Source of the DNA: Rhodothermales bacterium
GTDB lineage: Bacteria; Bacteroidota; Rhodothermia; Rhodothermales; VXPQ01
Reading direction: 5' to 3'
Assembly (NCBI GenBank): GCA_040904565.1
Contig: JBBDTI010000002.1
Location: 1 to 13,572 of the forward strand
Length of the DNA stretch: 13,572 nt
Both the position numbers and the translations under genes were made by a program. Every line of letters starts with the position of its first letter. Within the stretch, counting starts at the first letter, position 1. This document shows positions 3,896 through 12,013 of the stretch, in pieces. The notes under the pieces were generated by a model. The model saw nothing but the letters and a program-made list of their open reading frames with translations. It was not told the DNA's origin and made no database searches.

Positions 3896-4240
3896 TTGGA
3901 TCAGGATTTTATTCGCAGCCACCTCGAAAAGTCGGATTTCAGTCCCGTGCAAGCCGACGGCCTCTCACAGATTCTCGCCGACATGGCCACGAAGGACGAC
4001 CTGCAGCTGCTGAAGGCGGACCTCACGTCGGAGATGCGCCAGGGCTTCGCCCAGATGCGAGCGGAGATGCACAAGGAGCTGGCCACGTTCCGAATTGAGA
4101 GCGTTCAAGCCACCGAGAAGCTTCGCTCGGATCTGAGCGACGCCATCTTGGAAATTCAGGCGAGTACCCTGCGGTGGGTCATCGCGCTCATCATCGCACT
4201 GACGTCCATCGTTGCGCTGCTGGAGGTGCTGATCGAGTGA
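3896..4240 (+). CDS. DUF1640/CCDC90-like coiled-coil protein with C-terminal TM anchor (114 aa), divergent paralog
   Basis: TTG start. Head FSPVQADGL, beta-layer neck MATKDDL, coiled coil, TM tail RWVIALIIALTSIVALLEVLIE. Confidence 0.88.
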   Translation: MDQDFIRSHLEKSDFSPVQADGLSQILADMATKDDLQLLKADLTSEMRQGFAQMRAEMHKELATFRIESVQATEKLRSDLSDAILEIQASTLRWVIALIIALTSIVALLEVLIE

Positions 4241-4276: not shown

Positions 4277-5311
4277 TCAGGCCGCCTTGACGGATTCGAC
4301 GTAGACGCTGTCGGCCAGGTACGTGAGGGCGCCCACGCGCCGGCTCGCCGAACGCAGGCGCTCGGAGGCGTCGATCGCCAGACGGTAGGTCGGCGGCATG
4401 AGGTGACGATCGCTTTTCTGCAGTCCCAGCCCGAAGTAGCAGTCGACGCTTACGTCGGACGGACCCACCAGCTCCTCGAACCGCTCCCGCAGTTCGCCGA
4501 CGCTCCAGTACCTCACCTCGAAGTCCTTCGGCTCCCTGAACCGGCGCCGCGCCTGATGGTAGAGCGATCGCACGCCGATGCGATGGGGCATCTGGATGAG
4601 ACTGCGGCCGCCCGGCCGCAGTACCCGCTCGATCTCGGCGAGCACGACGCCCACGTTGTCTTTGCTGAGGTGCTGGAGGACGCTGTAGGAAAAGACGGCT
4701 TCGTAGGATGCTTCCCGGAACGGCAGGTAGCGGGCATCCGCGACGACGCCGCGGATCGGCAGGCCCATCTGCCGCGCCACCCGACGGGCCGCCATGACGG
4801 CGCCGAGGGAGGGGTCGATGCCGGTGACGGTGTAGCCTTTCCGCGCCGCCGCGACGCACCAGCGCCCCCAGTTGCAGCCCAGGTCGAGCAGCGGGGCTCC
4901 GCCTCCGGGCGGAAGCCGCAATTCGGGAATGGGATATGCCGACAGCTTGCCGACGAGGTGCTTATAGGTGAAGCCGCTCGTCGCCGCGACCATGAAGGCG
5001 ACGACGGGATCGATGGGGTGGTTTTCCCGAGCGGCCATCTCGGCGAGCTCGGCCTTCTCTCGCTCGCTGATGCCGAGCGTATCCAGATACAGATCATCCC
5101 GTTTCTCGCCTTTCAGTCCGTCGCGCGCGGCGGCGAGCGACGAAGAAGCCACGCCGATCGTCTGCTCGGCCTCTTCGACGAGCATCACCGGGATGCCGTC
5201 GACGACCGGGTACGTCCGCCCACCCTGCGATGCCAGGGCACCGTCGACGACGCGGAGGGGCGTCTTGTCGACGGGGCAGACGAGCTGTTCGAGATACCAG
5301 GGATCTATCAT
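4277..5311 (-). CDS. Class I SAM-dependent methyltransferase with fused N-terminal Trm112-like domain
   Basis: N-terminal LEQLVCPVDKTPL...YPVVDGIPVML (Trm112/UPF0434-like). SAM motif LLDLGCNWG, then GIDPS, ADARYLPF, FSYSVLQH, RVLRPGG. Confidence 0.9.
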   Translation of the reverse strand: MIDPWYLEQLVCPVDKTPLRVVDGALASQGGRTYPVVDGIPVMLVEEAEQTIGVASSSLAAARDGLKGEKRDDLYLDTLGISEREKAELAEMAARENHPIDPVVAFMVAATSGFTYKHLVGKLSAYPIPELRLPPGGGAPLLDLGCNWGRWCVAAARKGYTVTGIDPSLGAVMAARRVARQMGLPIRGVVADARYLPFREASYEAVFSYSVLQHLSKDNVGVVLAEIERVLRPGGRSLIQMPHRIGVRSLYHQARRRFREPKDFEVRYWSVGELRERFEELVGPSDVSVDCYFGLGLQKSDRHLMPPTYRLAIDASERLRSASRRVGALTYLADSVYVESVKAA

Positions 5312-5316
5312 CTATC

Positions 5317-6471
5317 CTATGCCGCCTGTTCGTCGGCCCGCTCGTCGGGCAGCGGGCCGTTCAGCCCGCGAAGTTTGACGATCCGTGGCTGCTTCTCTTC
5401 CACCGCCGTAAGCCGCTGGAATACGCTCGCCACCGTGGGGTAGTCCAGACTGCTCAGGAAGAGGCGGGTGGATACGGCCAGCGCGGCGAGGGGAAAGATC
5501 CAGAAGCGAAATTCGATGGCGGCCATCAGGACGGCCATGATGCCGAAAACGAGGCTCACGCCGTACATGGCGAAGACGGCCCGGCGGTGCCCGTAGCGCG
5601 CCAGCAGTCGGTGGTGGATGTGGTCGTGGTCGGAGTCGAAGATCGGCCGGTGCTCCACGAGACGGCGCGCCATCGCCACGGCCGTATCGACGAACGGAAG
5701 GCCGAGCACGACGGCGCCGACGAGAAGCTGGTCCGCCGTGGCGGCCATCCCGAAGCCGCCCAGCGTCATAGCGGCGATGGCGTAGCCGATCAGCATACTC
5801 CCGCAGTCGCCCATGAAGATCGTGGCGGGGTGGCTGTTGTGGACGAGGAATCCGGCCAGGACGCCGGTCAGGATCAGTGCGGGAAGGAAGAGGGCGAACT
5901 CGCCGCGAATGCCGAAGGCGGCCGTGAGGGAGGCGACGATCACCAGGCAGACGCCCGCCGCGAGTCCGTCGAGCCCGTCCAGGAGATTTACGGCGTTGAT
6001 GATGGCCACCGTCCACACGATCGTCAGCGGCAGCGAGTAGAGCGCCGCCACGTACGGATCACCATCCACGAACGGCAGAAACGAGACGTCGATGCGAAAG
6101 CCCGCGTGGATGAGGCTGTAGGCCGCGGCGACCTGCATCAGGAATTTGTAGTTGGTCCGCAGCCCGAACACGTCGTCGTAGAGTCCGGCCGCGAGGATGA
6201 GTGCGGCGCCGATCCACAGCGGCGCTGTCTGGTGGGCGAAGTCGAGTCCCGTGACCGCGGCCGTTCCCGCGAGGAGGATCCACACGACGGCGAAGCCCGC
6301 CGCCATGGCGAGTCCGCCCACGTTCGGAACCACCCGCGCGTGCCGCTTGCGGTGTCCGTCGGGCCGGTCGACCACATCGAATCGGGCGGCCATCTTCCCG
6401 ACGATCGGTGTCAGGACGACGACCGATGCGGCGGCGAGAAACCATCCCGCGATGAGATACAGGGCGTTCAT
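5317..6471 (-). CDS. Undecaprenyl-phosphate alpha-N-acetylglucosaminyl-1-phosphate transferase (WecA/TagO/MraY family)
   Basis: Polytopic membrane protein with DRPDGHRKRH, PNVGG, GLYDD, NAVNLLDGLDGLA, IFMGDCGS and DHIHHRL motifs. Confidence 0.92.
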   Translation of the reverse strand: MNALYLIAGWFLAAASVVVLTPIVGKMAARFDVVDRPDGHRKRHARVVPNVGGLAMAAGFAVVWILLAGTAAVTGLDFAHQTAPLWIGAALILAAGLYDDVFGLRTNYKFLMQVAAAYSLIHAGFRIDVSFLPFVDGDPYVAALYSLPLTIVWTVAIINAVNLLDGLDGLAAGVCLVIVASLTAAFGIRGEFALFLPALILTGVLAGFLVHNSHPATIFMGDCGSMLIGYAIAAMTLGGFGMAATADQLLVGAVVLGLPFVDTAVAMARRLVEHRPIFDSDHDHIHHRLLARYGHRRAVFAMYGVSLVFGIMAVLMAAIEFRFWIFPLAALAVSTRLFLSSLDYPTVASVFQRLTAVEEKQPRIVKLRGLNGPLPDERADEQAA

Positions 6472-6510
6472 GAGGTGGTGGGTTTGTGCGTGTGGTGGGT
6501 TGGGCGGCGC

Positions 6511-7881
6511 CTAAGCAGCCATAGCCTCCTGCTCGCGGCGGGCGGATCCGAGCACCGGGATGGGTTCGGTGGCCGGCTGCGGCAGCAAGGCCCGCAGCTG
6601 CTCGTCGAATTCGATCATGGCGTTGGCGCGCAGCAGGCGCACGGCGCGGTAGGCGCGGTTGCCTGCGATGCGGCGGCGTACGTCGCTCTGGTACCATCCG
6701 ACGATCCGCAGGGCGACGTCATGCCCGACCCTCTGCCCGACACCACGTTCGCCACCCTGACCGACACCCTGACCGACACCCTGACCGACAGCGCCCCCGC
6801 TGCCGTCCGTGCCCGAGACCACGTCCCCCGCGCCGTGCTCGCGCAGGAAGAGGGCGGCCTCGCTTTCATCCGGACCCAGAAAGAGGCACGGGCGGCCGGC
6901 CGCCATCGCCCCGTAGAGCTTGCTCGGCACGACGAGCCCGCAGGCGTCCCGCTCCATCGTGACGACGTGCAGGTCGCCTGCGCTGAGACTGTTCGCGAGG
7001 CGCTCGGACGGCTGCATGGGCAGCAGGCGGACGTTTTCGAGGTTGTCTCGCTCGATGCGCTCGGCGATCGCGCCGCGCTGCGGGCCGTCCCCGACCAGCA
7101 CGAAGCGGATGTCGGGATAGGCGCCCTTGATCTCCTCCGCCGCGTCGAGCAGCGGGTCGAAGGTGTGCGCGCGCCCCATGTTGCCGGAATACATCACGAC
7201 GAACTTGCCGTTCAGGTCGTTGTCGCGGCGGAAGGCGTTGAATCGGTGTTCGATGGGCCGGATGGACTGCAGCGGCCAGTTGGGGATGACGGCGACGCGA
7301 TCCGGGTCGACGCCGCGCCGCGCGAGCCGGTCTTCCATGCAGCGGCCGACGGCGATGACGAGATCCTTTCTTCGGAGGGCGGCCGACGACAGGCTGCGGA
7401 GCCCGCGCGCGACGACGCCGTCCCGCTTCATGACGCCCAGCGCCTCGGCCACGTCGGGGTAGAGATCCTGCGCCCAGTGGACCGTGCGCGAGCGGAAGAG
7501 GAAGCCCAGCACGGTCGCCATCACCAGGAGCAGCGGCGGATCCGTCTTGGCCACGACGACGTCGAAGCGGCCCAGAAAGAGCCCCCGCAGAAAGAGCGCC
7601 GGGTAGAGAAACAGGAAGGCGAAGAGCCGCTGGAGAAGAAATCCGCTGCCGACCGGGACGCCCTTCACGCGCACGACGCGGACGCCGCCGGAGAGGAAGG
7701 CGTCCTCGTCTTCCGAACCGGCCGGGCCGGTCAATACCGTCACCTGCCAGCCGCGCTGGACGAGGTTCACCGCCATGTCGCGCAGCAGCACGCCCGTCGC
7801 GCCGTTTGCCGGCGGATAGACGCGGTTGATGAACAGGACCGACGGGGAGCGTTCGTTTCGGAGGGCGTGGAGGGTCGACAT
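6511..7881 (-). CDS. Glycosyltransferase family 4 (WcaI/WbuB-like)
   Basis: INRVYPP, TDPP, WAQDLYPD, YSGNMGRAH, VGDG, VPSKLYGAMAAGRP. Carries a Gly-rich repeat insert near the C-terminus. Confidence 0.92.
   Translation of the reverse strand: MSTLHALRNERSPSVLFINRVYPPANGATGVLLRDMAVNLVQRGWQVTVLTGPAGSEDEDAFLSGGVRVVRVKGVPVGSGFLLQRLFAFLFLYPALFLRGLFLGRFDVVVAKTDPPLLLVMATVLGFLFRSRTVHWAQDLYPDVAEALGVMKRDGVVARGLRSLSSAALRRKDLVIAVGRCMEDRLARRGVDPDRVAVIPNWPLQSIRPIEHRFNAFRRDNDLNGKFVVMYSGNMGRAHTFDPLLDAAEEIKGAYPDIRFVLVGDGPQRGAIAERIERDNLENVRLLPMQPSERLANSLSAGDLHVVTMERDACGLVVPSKLYGAMAAGRPCLFLGPDESEAALFLREHGAGDVVSGTDGSGGAVGQGVGQGVGQGGERGVGQRVGHDVALRIVGWYQSDVRRRIAGNRAYRAVRLLRANAMIEFDEQLRALLPQPATEPIPVLGSARREQEAMAA
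6729..6790 (-). repeat. In-frame 12-bp tandem repeat encoding (VGQG)n
   Basis: caccctgaccga x3 perfect (6753-6788) plus two degenerate units toward 6729. Confidence 0.9.
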
Positions 7882-7898
7882 AAGCTTGGTGCGGATTC

Positions 7899-7927
7899 GC
7901 CAGGTATTGCTTTCACGGCCAGGTATT
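7899..7927. repeat. 10-bp direct repeat GCCAGGTATT x2 in intergenic region
   Basis: Copies at 7899-7908 and 7918-7927 (19-bp period) between the carbamoyltransferase and GT4 genes. Confidence 0.65.
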
Positions 7928-7954
7928 TGAACCGCCCGCGAGGGCCGTCACACA

Positions 7955-9841
7955 CTAGGCGGCGCGGCTTCCTATATCTGTTAGCGGGTCGTTTTTCGCT
8001 GCAGCGTGGGCTGCGGTCTCTTGTTTGGTCTTTTCGTTCGATGAGATATTGGGCAAACGACGTACCACGAGGTTGCCGATGACGAGTACGTCCATCCGCG
8101 TGCGCAGAAAGCAGTCGAGCGCTTCCTTCGGCGTGGCGACGATGGGTTCGTTTTCGTTGAAGCTGGTGTTCAGCAGCACGGGCACGTCCGTCAGCGCGGC
8201 GAACTCGGAGATGAGCTTGTGGAAGGTGGGGCTGGCGGTGCGGCTGACGGATTGCAGCCGTCCGCTGCCGTCGACGTGGGTGACGGCCGGGATCTCCGCG
8301 CGCTTGTCCGGCTGCACCGGATAGACCTGCTGCATGAAGGCGTCGGGGGCCGGGTCGACGAAGTAGTCCTGGAGAGCCTCCTCGAGAACGGCCGGGGCGA
8401 ACGGACGAAACAGTTCGCGAAATTTGATTTTCTGGTTGATGAGCTCGCGCACGTCGCTGCGCCGCGGGTCCGCCAGGATGCTGCGGTTACCGAGCGCCCG
8501 CGCCCCCCATTCCATCCGTCCCTGATACCATCCGACGACGGCGCCGTCGGCCAGCAGGCGGGCGACCTCGCGGCACGTGTCGTCCGTCGTTTCGAAGCGC
8601 TCGGAGGCGAAGCGGGAGTCGTCCCCGTGCGCCCGCGCCGTGCGGATGAACTCCCAGTCGTCGTGGTCGACGCTTACGGAAATGTTTTCCATCCCCTCGC
8701 CGGATGCTTCCGAGAAGGCATCGGGTCCCCAGTAGGCGTGATCCATCACGAACCGCCGCTCGCCGCCCAGCTCGTGCCACACGTGGGAGGCCGCTCCCAG
8801 CGCCGTGCCGTTGTCGCCCGCGGCGGGCTGAATGTAGAGGTTCTCGAAGGGCGTGTACGACCGGATTTTGCCGTTGGCGACGCTGTTCATCGCGCAGCCG
8901 CCGGCCAGCGCGAGGTTCGAGGTGCGGGTGCGCTCCCAGAGTCCGTTCAGGACGTGGAGGAAGGCCTCCTCGTAGACCACCTGCACGGAATGGGCGACGT
9001 CCATGTGGAACGTGCTTACCGTGTCGGATCCATCAAACGGGCGAGCCGGGCCCAGCAGCGCCTCCATTTCGTCGGAGAACACGCGCCCCAGCGTCGGGTA
9101 GCCGTCGTCCCAGTTCATATCCACGCCTTCGGAGCCGTGGAGGAAGTAGGTTAGGTCGAGCTCGAAGAGTCCGTCGTCCGTCGGCCGCACCAGCTGCCGG
9201 ATCTCATCGACGTACGCCGGCTTGCCGTAGGGCGCGAGGCCCATCACCTTATATTCGTCGCCGTAGTTGCGGAAGCCCAGGTACTGCGTCACGGCCGTGT
9301 AGAGCATCCCCAGCGAATGGGGGAAGAAGACGCGGTCGAGCACGTCGATCTCGGTGCCGCGACCGCGCGCCAGCGAGGTGCTGACGAAGTCGCCGAAGCC
9401 GTCGACGGCGCACACGGCGGCCTCCTCGAACGGGGAGACGAAGAAGGCGCTCGCGAGGTGTGCCGGATGGTGTTCGACGTTGTGCACCGGAGGGAGCTTC
9501 GCGACGCCCAGCACGCGGGCGAGCGGCGTCTCCACGTCGCCCAGCTTCTTGCGGTTGGAGAGCCGGTCGCGCAGGAGGTCGAGTCCGGGCCGGGTCTTCA
9601 GCACGTACCACGCCTTGCGCAGCAGGTGGGCGCGCGGATCGCGGCTGACGGCCACGTGGTCGACCTCCGACCCCGAGATGCCGGCGATGTCGAGGCAGGC
9701 GCGGATGGCCATGGACGGAAAGCCCGCCCAGTGCTTGACGCGGCGGTACCGTTCTTCTTCGACGGCGGCGACGACCTGTCCGTCCAGCAGCAGGACGGCC
9801 GATACGTCGCCGTGGTATGCGTTGATGCCCAGAATGTACAT
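7955..9841 (-). CDS. O-carbamoyltransferase, NodU/CmcH family
   Basis: ILGINAYHGD, EEER, HHPAH, DGFGD, KVMGLAPYG, GGCAMNSVANG, GDNG, GARALGNRS, KFRELFRPFAP, THVDGSGRLQ, LNTSFN. Confidence 0.95.
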   Translation of the reverse strand: MYILGINAYHGDVSAVLLLDGQVVAAVEEERYRRVKHWAGFPSMAIRACLDIAGISGSEVDHVAVSRDPRAHLLRKAWYVLKTRPGLDLLRDRLSNRKKLGDVETPLARVLGVAKLPPVHNVEHHPAHLASAFFVSPFEEAAVCAVDGFGDFVSTSLARGRGTEIDVLDRVFFPHSLGMLYTAVTQYLGFRNYGDEYKVMGLAPYGKPAYVDEIRQLVRPTDDGLFELDLTYFLHGSEGVDMNWDDGYPTLGRVFSDEMEALLGPARPFDGSDTVSTFHMDVAHSVQVVYEEAFLHVLNGLWERTRTSNLALAGGCAMNSVANGKIRSYTPFENLYIQPAAGDNGTALGAASHVWHELGGERRFVMDHAYWGPDAFSEASGEGMENISVSVDHDDWEFIRTARAHGDDSRFASERFETTDDTCREVARLLADGAVVGWYQGRMEWGARALGNRSILADPRRSDVRELINQKIKFRELFRPFAPAVLEEALQDYFVDPAPDAFMQQVYPVQPDKRAEIPAVTHVDGSGRLQSVSRTASPTFHKLISEFAALTDVPVLLNTSFNENEPIVATPKEALDCFLRTRMDVLVIGNLVVRRLPNISSNEKTKQETAAHAAAKNDPLTDIGSRAA

Positions 9842-9845
9842 GGCC

Positions 9846-10745
9846 TCAGGCGGCGCGCGGTATGCGTACCGTAATGGTGTGTGGGGTCGTTGGGGTGCGT
9901 GCGTCGAGAATTTCGGTGGGATCTTCGTGGTGGGTCTGGCCGCGCTCGCTCTGCTCCGCGCTGAGATACAGCGTCAGCAGCAGTTCGGCGTAGGTACGCT
10001 GGGCGGTGTACAGCCAGCCGGCCGGTCCGTCCAGGATCAGTCCCTTGCGAAAAAGGCAGTAGAGTGGGGTGAGCAGGGGCGCGATCCAGCGCTTCGCGCG
10101 CAGGCGGTCGACGAAACCGAGGGGGGTGGGCGCGGCGGACAGCTTCGCGGCCTCGTGCTCGGCGTAGCGCCGCTGGGCGTCGAGCCACGAAGCGATCGGC
10201 TTGCGGTCGTCGTGGAGGATGCGCGTGTTGATCGGCGCCGTGTCGCCGTCGAGCTGCAGCCGGTGCGCGTGGCCGTCCGCCGCGTAGCAGGCCATCGCGC
10301 GGCGAAAGAGGACGGTGCGCGGGGGATAGAGGCTGGCGCGGAGGGGCGTTCCATCCACACAGTACGTGAAGCGGGCCGTGTATCCGGCCACCTCGCTGTC
10401 CGCCTCGCTGGCCGCCTCGCTGTCCGCCTCGCTGGCCGTTTCGCCAACGAGCGACGCCATTTCCTCCACGAAGCCGTCCGCCAGCACGTAGTCGGCGTCG
10501 AGCGACAGCACCCATTCCGTCTCGATCTTCGTGAGGCCGAAGTTGCACTGGTCGGCGAAGGACTCGAAGGTCCGGTAGTAGACATCCACCCGAGAATCTT
10601 CCGCGAGGATGTCCAACGTCGCATCCGTCGAGAAGCTGTCCACCACCACGATGCGCCGCGCCCACGAGAGGCGGTCCAGCACTCGTTCGAGGTTGGCCTC
10701 TTCGTTGTAGGTGATCAGCAGCGGGGTGACGGATTCGAGCCGCAT
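9846..10745 (-). CDS. Glycosyltransferase family 2 (WaaE/KdtX-like)
   Basis: LITYNEEANL, VVVDSFSTDAT, DxD motif LSLDADY. Confidence 0.92.
   Translation of the reverse strand: MRLESVTPLLITYNEEANLERVLDRLSWARRIVVVDSFSTDATLDILAEDSRVDVYYRTFESFADQCNFGLTKIETEWVLSLDADYVLADGFVEEMASLVGETASEADSEAASEADSEVAGYTARFTYCVDGTPLRASLYPPRTVLFRRAMACYAADGHAHRLQLDGDTAPINTRILHDDRKPIASWLDAQRRYAEHEAAKLSAAPTPLGFVDRLRAKRWIAPLLTPLYCLFRKGLILDGPAGWLYTAQRTYAELLLTLYLSAEQSERGQTHHEDPTEILDARTPTTPHTITVRIPRAA
10391..10438 (-). repeat. In-frame 12-bp x4 (24-bp x2 perfect) tandem repeat encoding ASEADSEAASEADSE
   Basis: cctcgctgtccg / cctcgctggccg alternate twice. Confidence 0.9.
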
Positions 10746-10778
10746 GGGGCGAGGTGGGTGTGTGGTGGGTTGGCTGGA

Positions 10779-11963
10779 TCAGGCGGCCTTTACGGCAGGC
10801 AGATGGTCGGTGCGGGCCGCGACGGTTCCGGCGGAGGGCAGCCCCGCGTAGAGGCTAGTCAGTTTACCGGCGACGCGCGCCCACGTGAATTCGCGTTCGA
10901 TGAGGCGGCGGCCGTTGGCGCCGCGCTTGTGGCGCACGGTGTCGTGAAGGAGGGCGTCGCGCAGGTGACGGCGGACGTCCGACGGGTCGAGCGAGGTCAC
11001 CCAGCCGGCGTCGCCGCGCCGCACGTCGTGGGAGAGATCGACGTGCTCACTGACGAGCACCGGCGTGTGGGCGGCCATCGCTTCGGCGACGCAGATGCCG
11101 AAGTTTTCGTGGGAGGAGGTCAGCGCGAACAGCGACGCCTCGCGCAGCACCTGCGCCTTTTCGTCGCCGTCGACCCAGCCGGTAAAGAGGACCCGGTCCT
11201 GCACGCGTGCCCGGTAGATGATGTCGAGCAATTGCTTGACGTACCGCGGCTCGCCGTCGCCGGCGATGACGAGGCGCCAGTTGCGCAGCGGCTCTTCGCG
11301 CGTGACCTCGATGAAGGCGTCGATCAGGAGTTCGAGCCGCTTCTTCGGATGGATGCGGCTGAGAAAGAGGACGTACGGCGCCCCGCTCCCGTCGCGGCGG
11401 CGGTCGTTGATCTCGATGCCGTGCGGAATGACGACACCGCGGGAGAGTCCGCGCGACGATTCCACGTCCAGGCGCTCGGCCTCGGACGTGTAGTGGATCG
11501 CCGCGGCGCGTTCGAGCATTTGGCGGACGCCCAGGTGCCACGCGATCCGCTTGCGGATGGGTTTACGGTTCATGCTCCACGAGGAGAGGTTGCCGAGCGG
11601 GCGTACCACGTAGGGAACGCCGGCGTTACGCGCGGCCGCCGCGGCGGCGAGGCACGCATGGGAGAAGATGCCGTGGACGTGGACGACGTCGAAGGTGTGG
11701 ACGTGGGCGCGGAGCCAGGCGGAGAGTCCCGGGGCGTACTTGAAGGCCTCCGACCCTTTCCGGTCGAAGAAGATGGCGGGCACCCCCTCGAACGAGGTCT
11801 CGTCGCCGAGCGGCACCGGAAGATCCTTCGGTCCGTCCGCGTTCGTCGCGGCAAGGACTACCTCCACGCCGGACGCCAGGAGGGCGCGCGCCATGCCGAC
11901 GGCGGCCAGGCTGGGGCCGCCGTACCGGGCGGCAAGGGCCGGCACCACGTGGAGAGCTCGCAT
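10779..11963 (-). CDS. Glycosyltransferase family 4
   Basis: LHVVPALAARYGGP, DVVHVHG, VIPHGI, FLSRIHPKKRL, IAGDG, ENFGICVAEAMA (E-x7-E). Confidence 0.93.
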   Translation of the reverse strand: MRALHVVPALAARYGGPSLAAVGMARALLASGVEVVLAATNADGPKDLPVPLGDETSFEGVPAIFFDRKGSEAFKYAPGLSAWLRAHVHTFDVVHVHGIFSHACLAAAAAARNAGVPYVVRPLGNLSSWSMNRKPIRKRIAWHLGVRQMLERAAAIHYTSEAERLDVESSRGLSRGVVIPHGIEINDRRRDGSGAPYVLFLSRIHPKKRLELLIDAFIEVTREEPLRNWRLVIAGDGEPRYVKQLLDIIYRARVQDRVLFTGWVDGDEKAQVLREASLFALTSSHENFGICVAEAMAAHTPVLVSEHVDLSHDVRRGDAGWVTSLDPSDVRRHLRDALLHDTVRHKRGANGRRLIEREFTWARVAGKLTSLYAGLPSAGTVAARTDHLPAVKAA

Positions 11964-12013
11964 GTCGTGTGATCGCGCGAATCGTGAAGGTTACTCGTGT
12001 GGAGGGTCTCTTC

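Follow-up and report, generated by a model that had tools for sequence, protein, structure and literature searches.

C-terminal Ala-Ala on all six proteins of a predicted glycan operon in a Rhodothermales bacterium: a candidate proteolytic mark

Why should the six enzymes of one operon all end in the same two residues? The question was raised by a stretch of 13,572 nt from an uncultured Rhodothermales bacterium (GenBank assembly GCA_040904565.1, contig JBBDTI010000002.1). This stretch, referred to here as the window, takes up contig C2 in full, one of the 95 contigs of a 4.02-Mb assembly that is 94.9% complete. It carries six glycan genes whose products all terminate in Ala-Ala. The original prediction, made from the sequence, had read these ends as a candidate degron, genetically encoded, operon-wide and resembling the ssrA tag. 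Here we describe the ends, ask how far they depart from chance in this genome, and weigh what may read them.

Ala-Ala ends in the window operon and in a second cluster

All six open reading frames (ORFs) are on the minus strand, arranged head to tail and separated by 4–73 nt (the distances from stop to next start are 4, 5, 33, 39 and 73 nt). They are listed below in operon order with their Pfam matches, C-termini, terminal Ala codons and stops. The tail is the number of residues past the part that can be aligned to homologs, and the value of the homologs themselves is given in brackets.

10779-11963, minus: GT4-family glycosyltransferase (GT4a), first gene, 394 aa, PF00534/PF13439; ends LPAVKAA, GCC GCC at 10782-10787, stop TGA; tail 22 (10), against 51 homologs
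9846-10745, minus: GT2-family glycosyltransferase (GT2), 299 aa, PF00535; ends VRIPRAA, GCC GCC, stop TGA; tail 38 (11), against 23 homologs
7955-9841, minus: carbamoyltransferase of NodU/CmcH type, 628 aa, PF02543 and PF16861 (N and C domains); ends DIGSRAA, GCC GCC, stop TAG; tail 33 (4)
6511-7881, minus: second GT4-family glycosyltransferase (GT4b), 456 aa, PF00534/PF13439; ends EQEAMAA, GCT GCT, stop TAG; tail 94 (50)
5317-6471, minus: WecA/MraY-type polyprenyl-phosphate sugar-phosphate transferase (WecA-like), membrane protein, 384 aa, PF00953 (Glycos_transf_4); ends ADEQAA, GCG GCA, stop TAG; tail 64 (69)
4277-5311, minus: S-adenosylmethionine (SAM)-dependent methyltransferase, last gene, 344 aa, PF13649; ends ESVKAA, GCG GCC, stop TGA; tail 2 (8), that is, no extra tail

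The operon is predicted from these matches to synthesize a lipid-linked, carbamoylated, methylated glycan. It combines an initiating PF00953 transferase with glycosyltransferases and modifying enzymes in a single direction of transcription, as such an operon should. No flippase, polymerase or exporter was found in the window by Pfam.

The translations gave the six C-termini exactly as the original prediction had written them. None of the other called genes of the window ends in Ala-Ala, and their ends (FID three times, LIE, GGR, LTR, VFP, AEG and GRS) were all recovered.

The tails of GT4a, GT2 and the carbamoyltransferase exceeded those of their homologs by 12–29 residues, and the ends of GT4b and the WecA-like protein were variable. 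The carbamoyltransferase homologs, which are 580–639 aa long, align to about residue 595, and an extension of 30–33 residues is left without a counterpart. Five of the six ends had been placed on apparently unstructured tails beyond the catalytic domain. As far as length and variability go this held broadly, with extra or variable tails at three to five of the proteins, but not for the methyltransferase, which has no tail.

To estimate how often such ends occur, C-terminal dipeptides were tabulated across the proteome. Genes were called with a crude, home-written caller based on codon usage and trained on this genome. Whichever start is chosen, the stop position and with it the C-terminus stays the same. 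A second version of the caller picks the best-scoring start and recovers genes that the first version had dropped for overlap.

With the first caller, Ala-Ala was the commonest C-terminal dipeptide (72 of 3148 proteins, 2.29%), followed by Arg-Arg with 49. The expectation was 0.97% from composition and 1.35% from positional frequencies. The second caller gave 83 of 3238 (2.56%), the next dipeptide reaching 41. Outside the window operon and a second cluster described below, 60 of 3130 proteins (1.92%) had the end, and Ala-Ala at each of the 15 preceding offsets was found in 29–45 proteins (0.93–1.44%, about 1.2%). C-terminal Ala-Ala is thus mildly enriched in this proteome, not avoided. These counts correct the rough estimate of the original prediction, about 2% of proteins at an assumed Ala content of 12–15%; Ala in fact makes up 9.8% of residues.

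A run of six is far from what chance would give. At a background of 0.0192 the probability of six out of six is 5.0e-11, or 1.6e-7 when multiplied by the gene count. Shuffling the labels 5000 times never produced a run longer than four, and four was reached in only three shuffles. Adjacent pairs of Ala-Ala-ended genes numbered 10 with the first caller, against a mean of 1.58 and a maximum of 7 in 5000 shuffles; the second caller gave 11, where 3000 shuffles averaged 2.06 and reached at most 8. The tabulation that the original prediction had proposed as a check therefore found the ends to be clustered, and it exposed a second cluster.

This second glycan cluster lies on contig C25 (8713-22401). 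Ala-Ala ends were present in six of its eight Pfam-supported genes, for which the probability of six or more is 1.3e-9. The genes, several of which encode tetratricopeptide repeats (TPR), are as follows.

TPR-sulfotransferase; ends SVAA
TPR-sulfotransferase-glycosyltransferase protein, 1282 aa, opposite strand; ends RDAA
NAD-dependent epimerase/dehydratase; ends ALAA
DegT aminotransferase; ends RRAA
AsnB-like amidotransferase; ends SAAA
Glycosyltransferase-like protein; ends VQAA
Small TPR protein and ATP-grasp ligase; no Ala-Ala end

The product of this cluster is probably a sulfated polysaccharide bearing amino sugars. Among the four TPR-bearing proteins encoded in it is a pair of small paralogs, 165 and 163 aa long, that are cytoplasmic, consist of TPR only and have neither a signal peptide nor an Ala-Ala end. 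The residue before Ala-Ala is V, D, L, R, A and Q in this cluster and K, R, R, M, Q and K in the window operon. An HslU-like gene lies on the same contig at 29936-31369, 7.5 kb from the cluster.

Further Ala-Ala ends were found on NAD-dependent epimerase/dehydratases. Three such epimerases occur among five neighbouring genes around a GT2 gene on contig C16 (5547-11522), and single ones lie on C54 (35891-36880) and C71 (21553-22596). Together with the epimerase of the C25 cluster they make up 6 of the 20 PF01370 epimerases of the genome. When the two main clusters are set aside, the end was present on 6 of 63 GT1, GT2 and epimerase genes combined and on 65 of 3159 other genes (odds ratio 5.0, P 0.002); this excess was driven by the epimerases.

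Two small groups of neighbouring ends were seen elsewhere as well. On contig C26 (37717-38810) a 93-aa ORF and a sigma-70 family protein are neighbours and both end in KAA. On contig C51 (15797-20700) three of four genes have Ala-Ala ends, namely those for IspH, a histidine kinase and a 200-aa protein.

The mixed terminal codons (GCC GCC three times, GCT GCT, GCG GCA and GCG GCC) and the use of both TGA and TAG had been taken in the original prediction to point to selection on the protein rather than to a repeat in the DNA. The wider data agreed with this: codons, stops and flanks all differ, and the end recurs in the C25 cluster and on scattered epimerases. A shared DNA element at the gene ends was rejected, as the 45 nt on either side of the 12 stops of the two clusters had nothing in common beyond GCN GCN. 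The one exact repeat in the operon is a 14-mer, CCAACCCACCACAC, at two positions.

10760-10773, minus: first copy, in the spacer, 28 nt before the GT2 start
6490-6503, minus: second copy, in the spacer, 32 nt before the WecA-like start

These are the only two copies in the assembly, and both lie in C/A-rich spacers of this operon. The 14-mer may be a leader or translation element, or it may be left over from an ancient duplication that took in a GT4 gene and its spacer. Since it stands in two spacers only, it could tie at most two of the six gene ends together.

Base composition did not join the two clusters either. The GC content at third codon positions (GC3) is 0.85–0.89 in the window operon and 0.71–0.76 in the C25 cluster, with a genome value of 0.752 +/- 0.054. 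With this difference a common donor is unlikely, and the habit of one donor cannot explain both clusters. Composition as a sufficient cause was set aside as well, the Ala content of the proteins being 6.5–16% and Ala-Ala at the neighbouring offsets standing at about 1.2%.

A proteolytic reading of the ends

That the ends are some kind of selected signal at the level of the protein we consider slightly better than an even bet. The best single mechanism is a proteolytic one, to which we would give a probability of roughly 0.35, largely by analogy with known degrons. The reader would most likely be an AAA+ protease that also clears proteins with the host ssrA tag. In such a scheme the free Ala-Ala carboxy-terminus, mostly on a flexible tail, would be engaged by the pore of ClpX, acting with ClpP; FtsH or Lon might take over this role for those members that are membrane-associated. 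The enzymes of the pathway would be short-lived or conditionally degraded, and the lipid-linked, carbamoylated, methylated glycan would be made only during transcription of the operon.

A broader form of this reading is possible but somewhat more doubtful. Ala-Ala-COOH might serve as a two-residue, post-translational regulon marker on several separate glycan loci (the window operon, the C25 cluster and the epimerases of C16, C54 and C71). One AAA+ protease, with or without an adaptor, would then remove a whole surface-glycan programme, and the code would have been gained repeatedly on non-homologous proteins.

Comparison with the host tag, which the original prediction had proposed, favoured a proteolytic reader. 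The transfer-messenger RNA (tmRNA) of this genome, found with aragorn, encodes the tag ANDYSYAMAA, which matches that of Rhodothermus marinus. Its last four residues, AMAA, are also the last four of GT4b (EAMAA). The longer or variable tails described above would offer the flexible initiation sites that AAA+ proteases need. The assembly encodes ClpP, Lon, two FtsH and two Hsp100-class proteins.

In E. coli, Ala-Ala dominates the strongest C-terminal pentapeptide degrons: it is terminal in 91% of the 100 strongest, and these depend on ClpXP (PMC10862746). Residues regarded as favourable at positions -3 to -5 are Leu, Ala/Arg or aromatic ones, and the disfavoured list for position -3, directly before Ala-Ala, comprises Pro, His, Gly and short polar residues. 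None of the residues at -3 in the window operon or the C25 cluster is on that list, but only one is Leu. These rules were measured in E. coli, not in this phylum.

Several results weigh against the proteolytic reading, and they concern the signal, the reader and the distribution of the ends. In the same E. coli study, Ala-Ala was necessary and not sufficient, as 39% of the Ala-Ala pentapeptides were weak, and the residue favoured upstream was Leu rather than Lys, Arg or Gln (PMC10862746).

In this genome Ala-Ala also ends EF-G, SMC, glutamate synthase (GltB), IspH, Lgt, CoaBC, Asd, peptide deformylase and a protein of the isocitrate/isopropylmalate dehydrogenase family. These come from the 50 annotated proteins among 60 others with the end (first list), many of which are stable housekeeping proteins. 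The ends are enriched outside the two clusters (1.92% against about 1.2% at neighbouring offsets); in this genome a strong constitutive degron cannot consist of Ala-Ala by itself.

As for the reader, no ClpX was found above the family cut-off in the assembly, the best match being HslU-like, and no SspB was found in it. ClpX was matched in all 18 family relatives; the match passed the cut-off in 17 of them, and in the remaining one it was divided between two contigs. A gap in the assembly is a likely cause of the missing clpX, since clpP runs off the end of a contig of only 5 kb (C57, 5065 bp).

Most glycan enzymes of the genome do not carry the mark. It was present on 4 of the 22 called GT1 genes (three further matches had no gene call) and on 1 of the 26 called GT2 genes (one further match had none), that is, on only 5 of 48, and four of these five are inside the two clusters. 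NTP-transferases had it in none of six cases and DegT proteins in one of three. No Ala-Ala ends were found in the other glycan clusters of this genome, on C40, C30, C49, C19 and C18, and the mark is therefore restricted to certain loci and families rather than belonging to glycan enzymes at large. A general trait of the glycan enzymes of this genome was ruled out by these five clusters together with the NTP-transferases and DegT proteins.

Relatives did not share the pattern. Among 40 relatives the best match to the carbamoyltransferase had 66% identity (genome G036, of the same order), and none of the best 119 matches in a collection of 5.8 billion protein clusters exceeded 67%; no close ortholog of the window operon was found in either set. 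The original prediction had named orthologs that lack Ala-Ala as a refutation, and at the distances available such orthologs were the rule: Ala-Ala was not kept at 64–67% identity. It ended 2 of 78 carbamoyltransferase homologs, 4 of the best 119 matches, and none of the 15 genes in the partly syntenic cluster of G036.

The surroundings of these homologs gave the same picture. Across 80 loci with a carbamoyltransferase homolog, spread over many phyla, the end was present on 15 of 900 genes and no run was longer than two. In 20 glycan loci of family relatives the count was 11 of 221, with no two adjacent. No locus among the roughly 200 examined in other genomes had more than three Ala-Ala ends or a run longer than two. 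To date a single genome, that of an uncultured organism, shows the pattern.

Epimerases elsewhere seldom had the end, in 4 of 100 homologs from 207 other loci and in 3 of 48 from four sister genera, against 6 of 20 in this genome; this specificity speaks for a selected signal rather than against one. With the carbamoyltransferase counts, this ruled out Ala-Ala as a general trait of the enzyme families. The three orthologs of the C71 epimerase (75–85% identity) end in SAAM, RATP and DTAV, none of them in Ala-Ala.

The C25 cluster also occurs on a 70-kb contig of another assembly. Conservation among its closest relatives is patchy. In one, a metagenome contig with the same flanking genes (L191, 79–81% identity), Ala-Ala was kept on the epimerase and lost on DegT; in another (L192, 74–78% identity) it was lost on the epimerase. 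Of the 21 closest homologs of DegT (66–82% identity), 10 had Ala-Ala, mostly as x-Cys-Ala-Ala. Since these relatives and the orthologs of the C71 epimerase differ in this way, some of the ends predate this lineage and some were gained in it. None of 150 genomes of the order yielded a full-length ortholog of the 1282-aa protein of the C25 cluster.

The C-terminal degrons known so far tag individual regulators or failed products of translation. The ssrA tag belongs to the latter and is added by trans-translation, whereas the ends of the operon are encoded in the genes. Upstream stand K, R, M or Q, not Leu, and no similarity to the earlier part of the tag was seen. Here, moreover, the ends stand on nearly all genes of whole predicted pathways, in an assembly in which ClpX was not found.

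Native Ala-Ala ends are degraded by ClpXP in Caulobacter CtrA and in the RseA fragment that ends in VAA, by a proteolysis that is regulated and often dependent on an adaptor. The encoded or exposed Ala-Ala end is common to both situations. CtrA and RseA are single regulators, however, and here there are 12 enzymes in two clusters plus several epimerases.

In E. coli, FtsH sets the turnover of LpxC and WaaA/KdtA, enzymes of envelope glycolipid synthesis, through a non-polar C-terminal tail. That case involves one or two enzymes and another tail motif, unlike the whole pathway considered here, and although two FtsH genes are present the link to FtsH is a matter of plausibility. C-terminal alanines are also a degradation mark in ribosome quality control, in the form of the Ala-tails made by RqcH; those are added after translation to stalled chains, in contrast to the gene-encoded ends of the operon.

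A full-text literature search (article texts, supplements excluded) found no paper on operon-wide Ala-Ala ends or on proteolytic control of a whole glycan operon. If the proteolytic reading is true, it would represent a new kind of post-translational co-regulation of enzyme sets, with a "regulon" set by a dipeptide and not by a promoter, and short-lived pathways could be predicted from sequence. Even without a protease as the reader, the convergent gain of two residues on at least 12 unrelated enzymes needs explaining. The pattern is easily searched for elsewhere, as runs of identical C-terminal dipeptides along operons.

Strain variants and rival explanations

DNA nearly identical to the window occurs in five sediment-metagenome runs. 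None of these is listed as an RNA run, which carries no weight on expression. Contigs from three other sediment runs, covering the operon in pieces, were compared with it. The figures given here are those among the differences listed, and the lack of a listed difference at the remaining terminal codons is no evidence that these are unchanged.

In runs X2 and X3 position 4280 was changed from G to A. The substitution falls in the wobble position of the methyltransferase's final Ala codon (GCC to GCT) and is synonymous. The same two runs had small insertions in the tail of the carbamoyltransferase, 16–27 codons from its end; in X2 the listed ones add up to 12 nt.

The end of GT4a was more strongly altered. 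In X2 and X3 the stretch 10771-10829, which holds its last 16 codons, the stop and 8 nt, was swapped for 73 other letters, 14 nt longer. This hypervariable end sits between strains that are otherwise 97–99% identical, and the final residues of the variant could not be read. A search for the variant tail among shorter proteins gave four matches, all of 43–53% identity and none close.

Exact look-up of the operon proteins returned only variants of 93–100% identity. The WecA-like variant P0249 (93% identity) had a 3-residue insertion and five substitutions in the last 45 aligned residues, four of them in the last 22, and still ended in ADEQAA. The GT2 variant P0246 (99.3% identity) had the same end as GT2. 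The insertions, substitutions and replaced ends indicated that the tails evolve fast. The few readable variant ends keep Ala-Ala while the tails vary, which points to retention, in a manner that is suggestive but thin.

Could the ends mean nothing? Pure coincidence has in its favour that very many windows were looked at. Over some 250,000 windows, or about 3 million genes, only about 1e-4 (1.6e-4) such runs would be expected if backgrounds are similar, and with P = 5e-11 for the run of six and the second improbable cluster in the same genome we regard coincidence as negligible. A functionless by-product is a more serious matter, and we hold it possible though doubtful. The ends would then be tolerated accidents of fast-evolving tails rich in Ala and GC and of their history, through unsampled donors with many such ends or through some mutational bias. 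This account fits the rank of Ala-Ala as the most frequent end in the genome and its tolerance on housekeeping proteins, as well as the hypervariable tails and the patchy conservation among the closest homologs. Both clusters are accessory, to judge from the carbamoyltransferase (at most 67% identity among the best matches) and the 1282-aa protein, and the atypically high GC3 of the window operon suggests transfer. Yet 12 of 14 ends in the two clusters would need a directional force at any of the measured backgrounds (1.7–5%), the proteins have an ordinary Ala content, the compositions of the clusters make a single donor unlikely, and none of the approximately 200 loci of other genomes comes near such a count or run.

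A signal read by something other than a protease was also considered. Ala-Ala might be a docking signal on the protein, gathering the enzymes on a scaffold such as a membrane TPR or PDZ protein into a complex for glycan assembly. The clustering statistics serve this explanation as well as they serve the degron, and it sits well with stable housekeeping proteins that carry the end. TPR domains do clamp C-terminal peptides, as PEX5 does with PTS1 and Hop with EEVD; these, too, are codes of two or three residues on related enzymes, and the C25 cluster encodes four TPR-bearing proteins. The known examples are eukaryotic, though, and the window operon encodes no TPR or PDZ protein. Two residues hold very little information for a specific site, those before them are not conserved among the 12 proteins, and we know of no cytoplasmic scaffold that reads Ala-Ala. 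A complex prediction that paired the C-terminal 46 residues of the AsnB-like protein with its neighbour on C25, the 163-aa TPR protein, scored 0.02 against a mark of 0.34, and this has no weight either way. We think docking unlikely. Less probable still, and clearly so, is a signal in the nucleic acid, by which GCN GCN followed by TGA or TAG would modulate how translation terminates or re-initiates on the following cistron, or how the mRNA is processed. In E. coli the final two residues reportedly influence termination at UGA (work cited in PMC7246954), and all 12 stops are TGA or TAG, with no TAA compared with 20% TAA genome-wide; chance alone would give this with P of about 0.07. Against it, the spacing from stop to start varies between 4 and 73 nt, the C25 genes are on both strands and several are the last in their unit, the genes draw on every one of the four Ala codons, and the sequences downstream of the stops have nothing in common.

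Other features of the window

The operon is flanked by genes for a GH16 hydrolase, a UDP-GlcNAc 2-epimerase, a ribbon-helix-helix (RHH) antitoxin-like protein and small paralogous membrane-anchored proteins. Four small paralogs on the plus strand have a coiled coil and a C-terminal membrane helix. They end in FID or LIE and have no Pfam match.

1-148, plus: small paralogous protein, partial
1099-1593, plus: small paralogous protein
1711-1989, plus: small paralogous protein
3896-4240, plus: small paralogous protein

The last five codons including the stop (xFID-stop) are repeated in tandem at two of these genes, once after 1593 and twice after 1989.

Low-complexity inserts were present in two of the operon proteins. 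GT4b has Gly-Gln-Gly-Val repeats (about 6703-6780, minus) and GT2 has Ala-Ser-Glu-Ala-Asp-Ser-Glu repeats (about 10390-10436, minus).

Very long open frames run antisense to the operon on the plus strand, at 5230-8082 (950 aa) and 9354-11972 (872 aa), and each spans several of the minus-strand genes. The codon model rated both as non-coding; frames of this sort commonly shadow genes whose GC3 is high.

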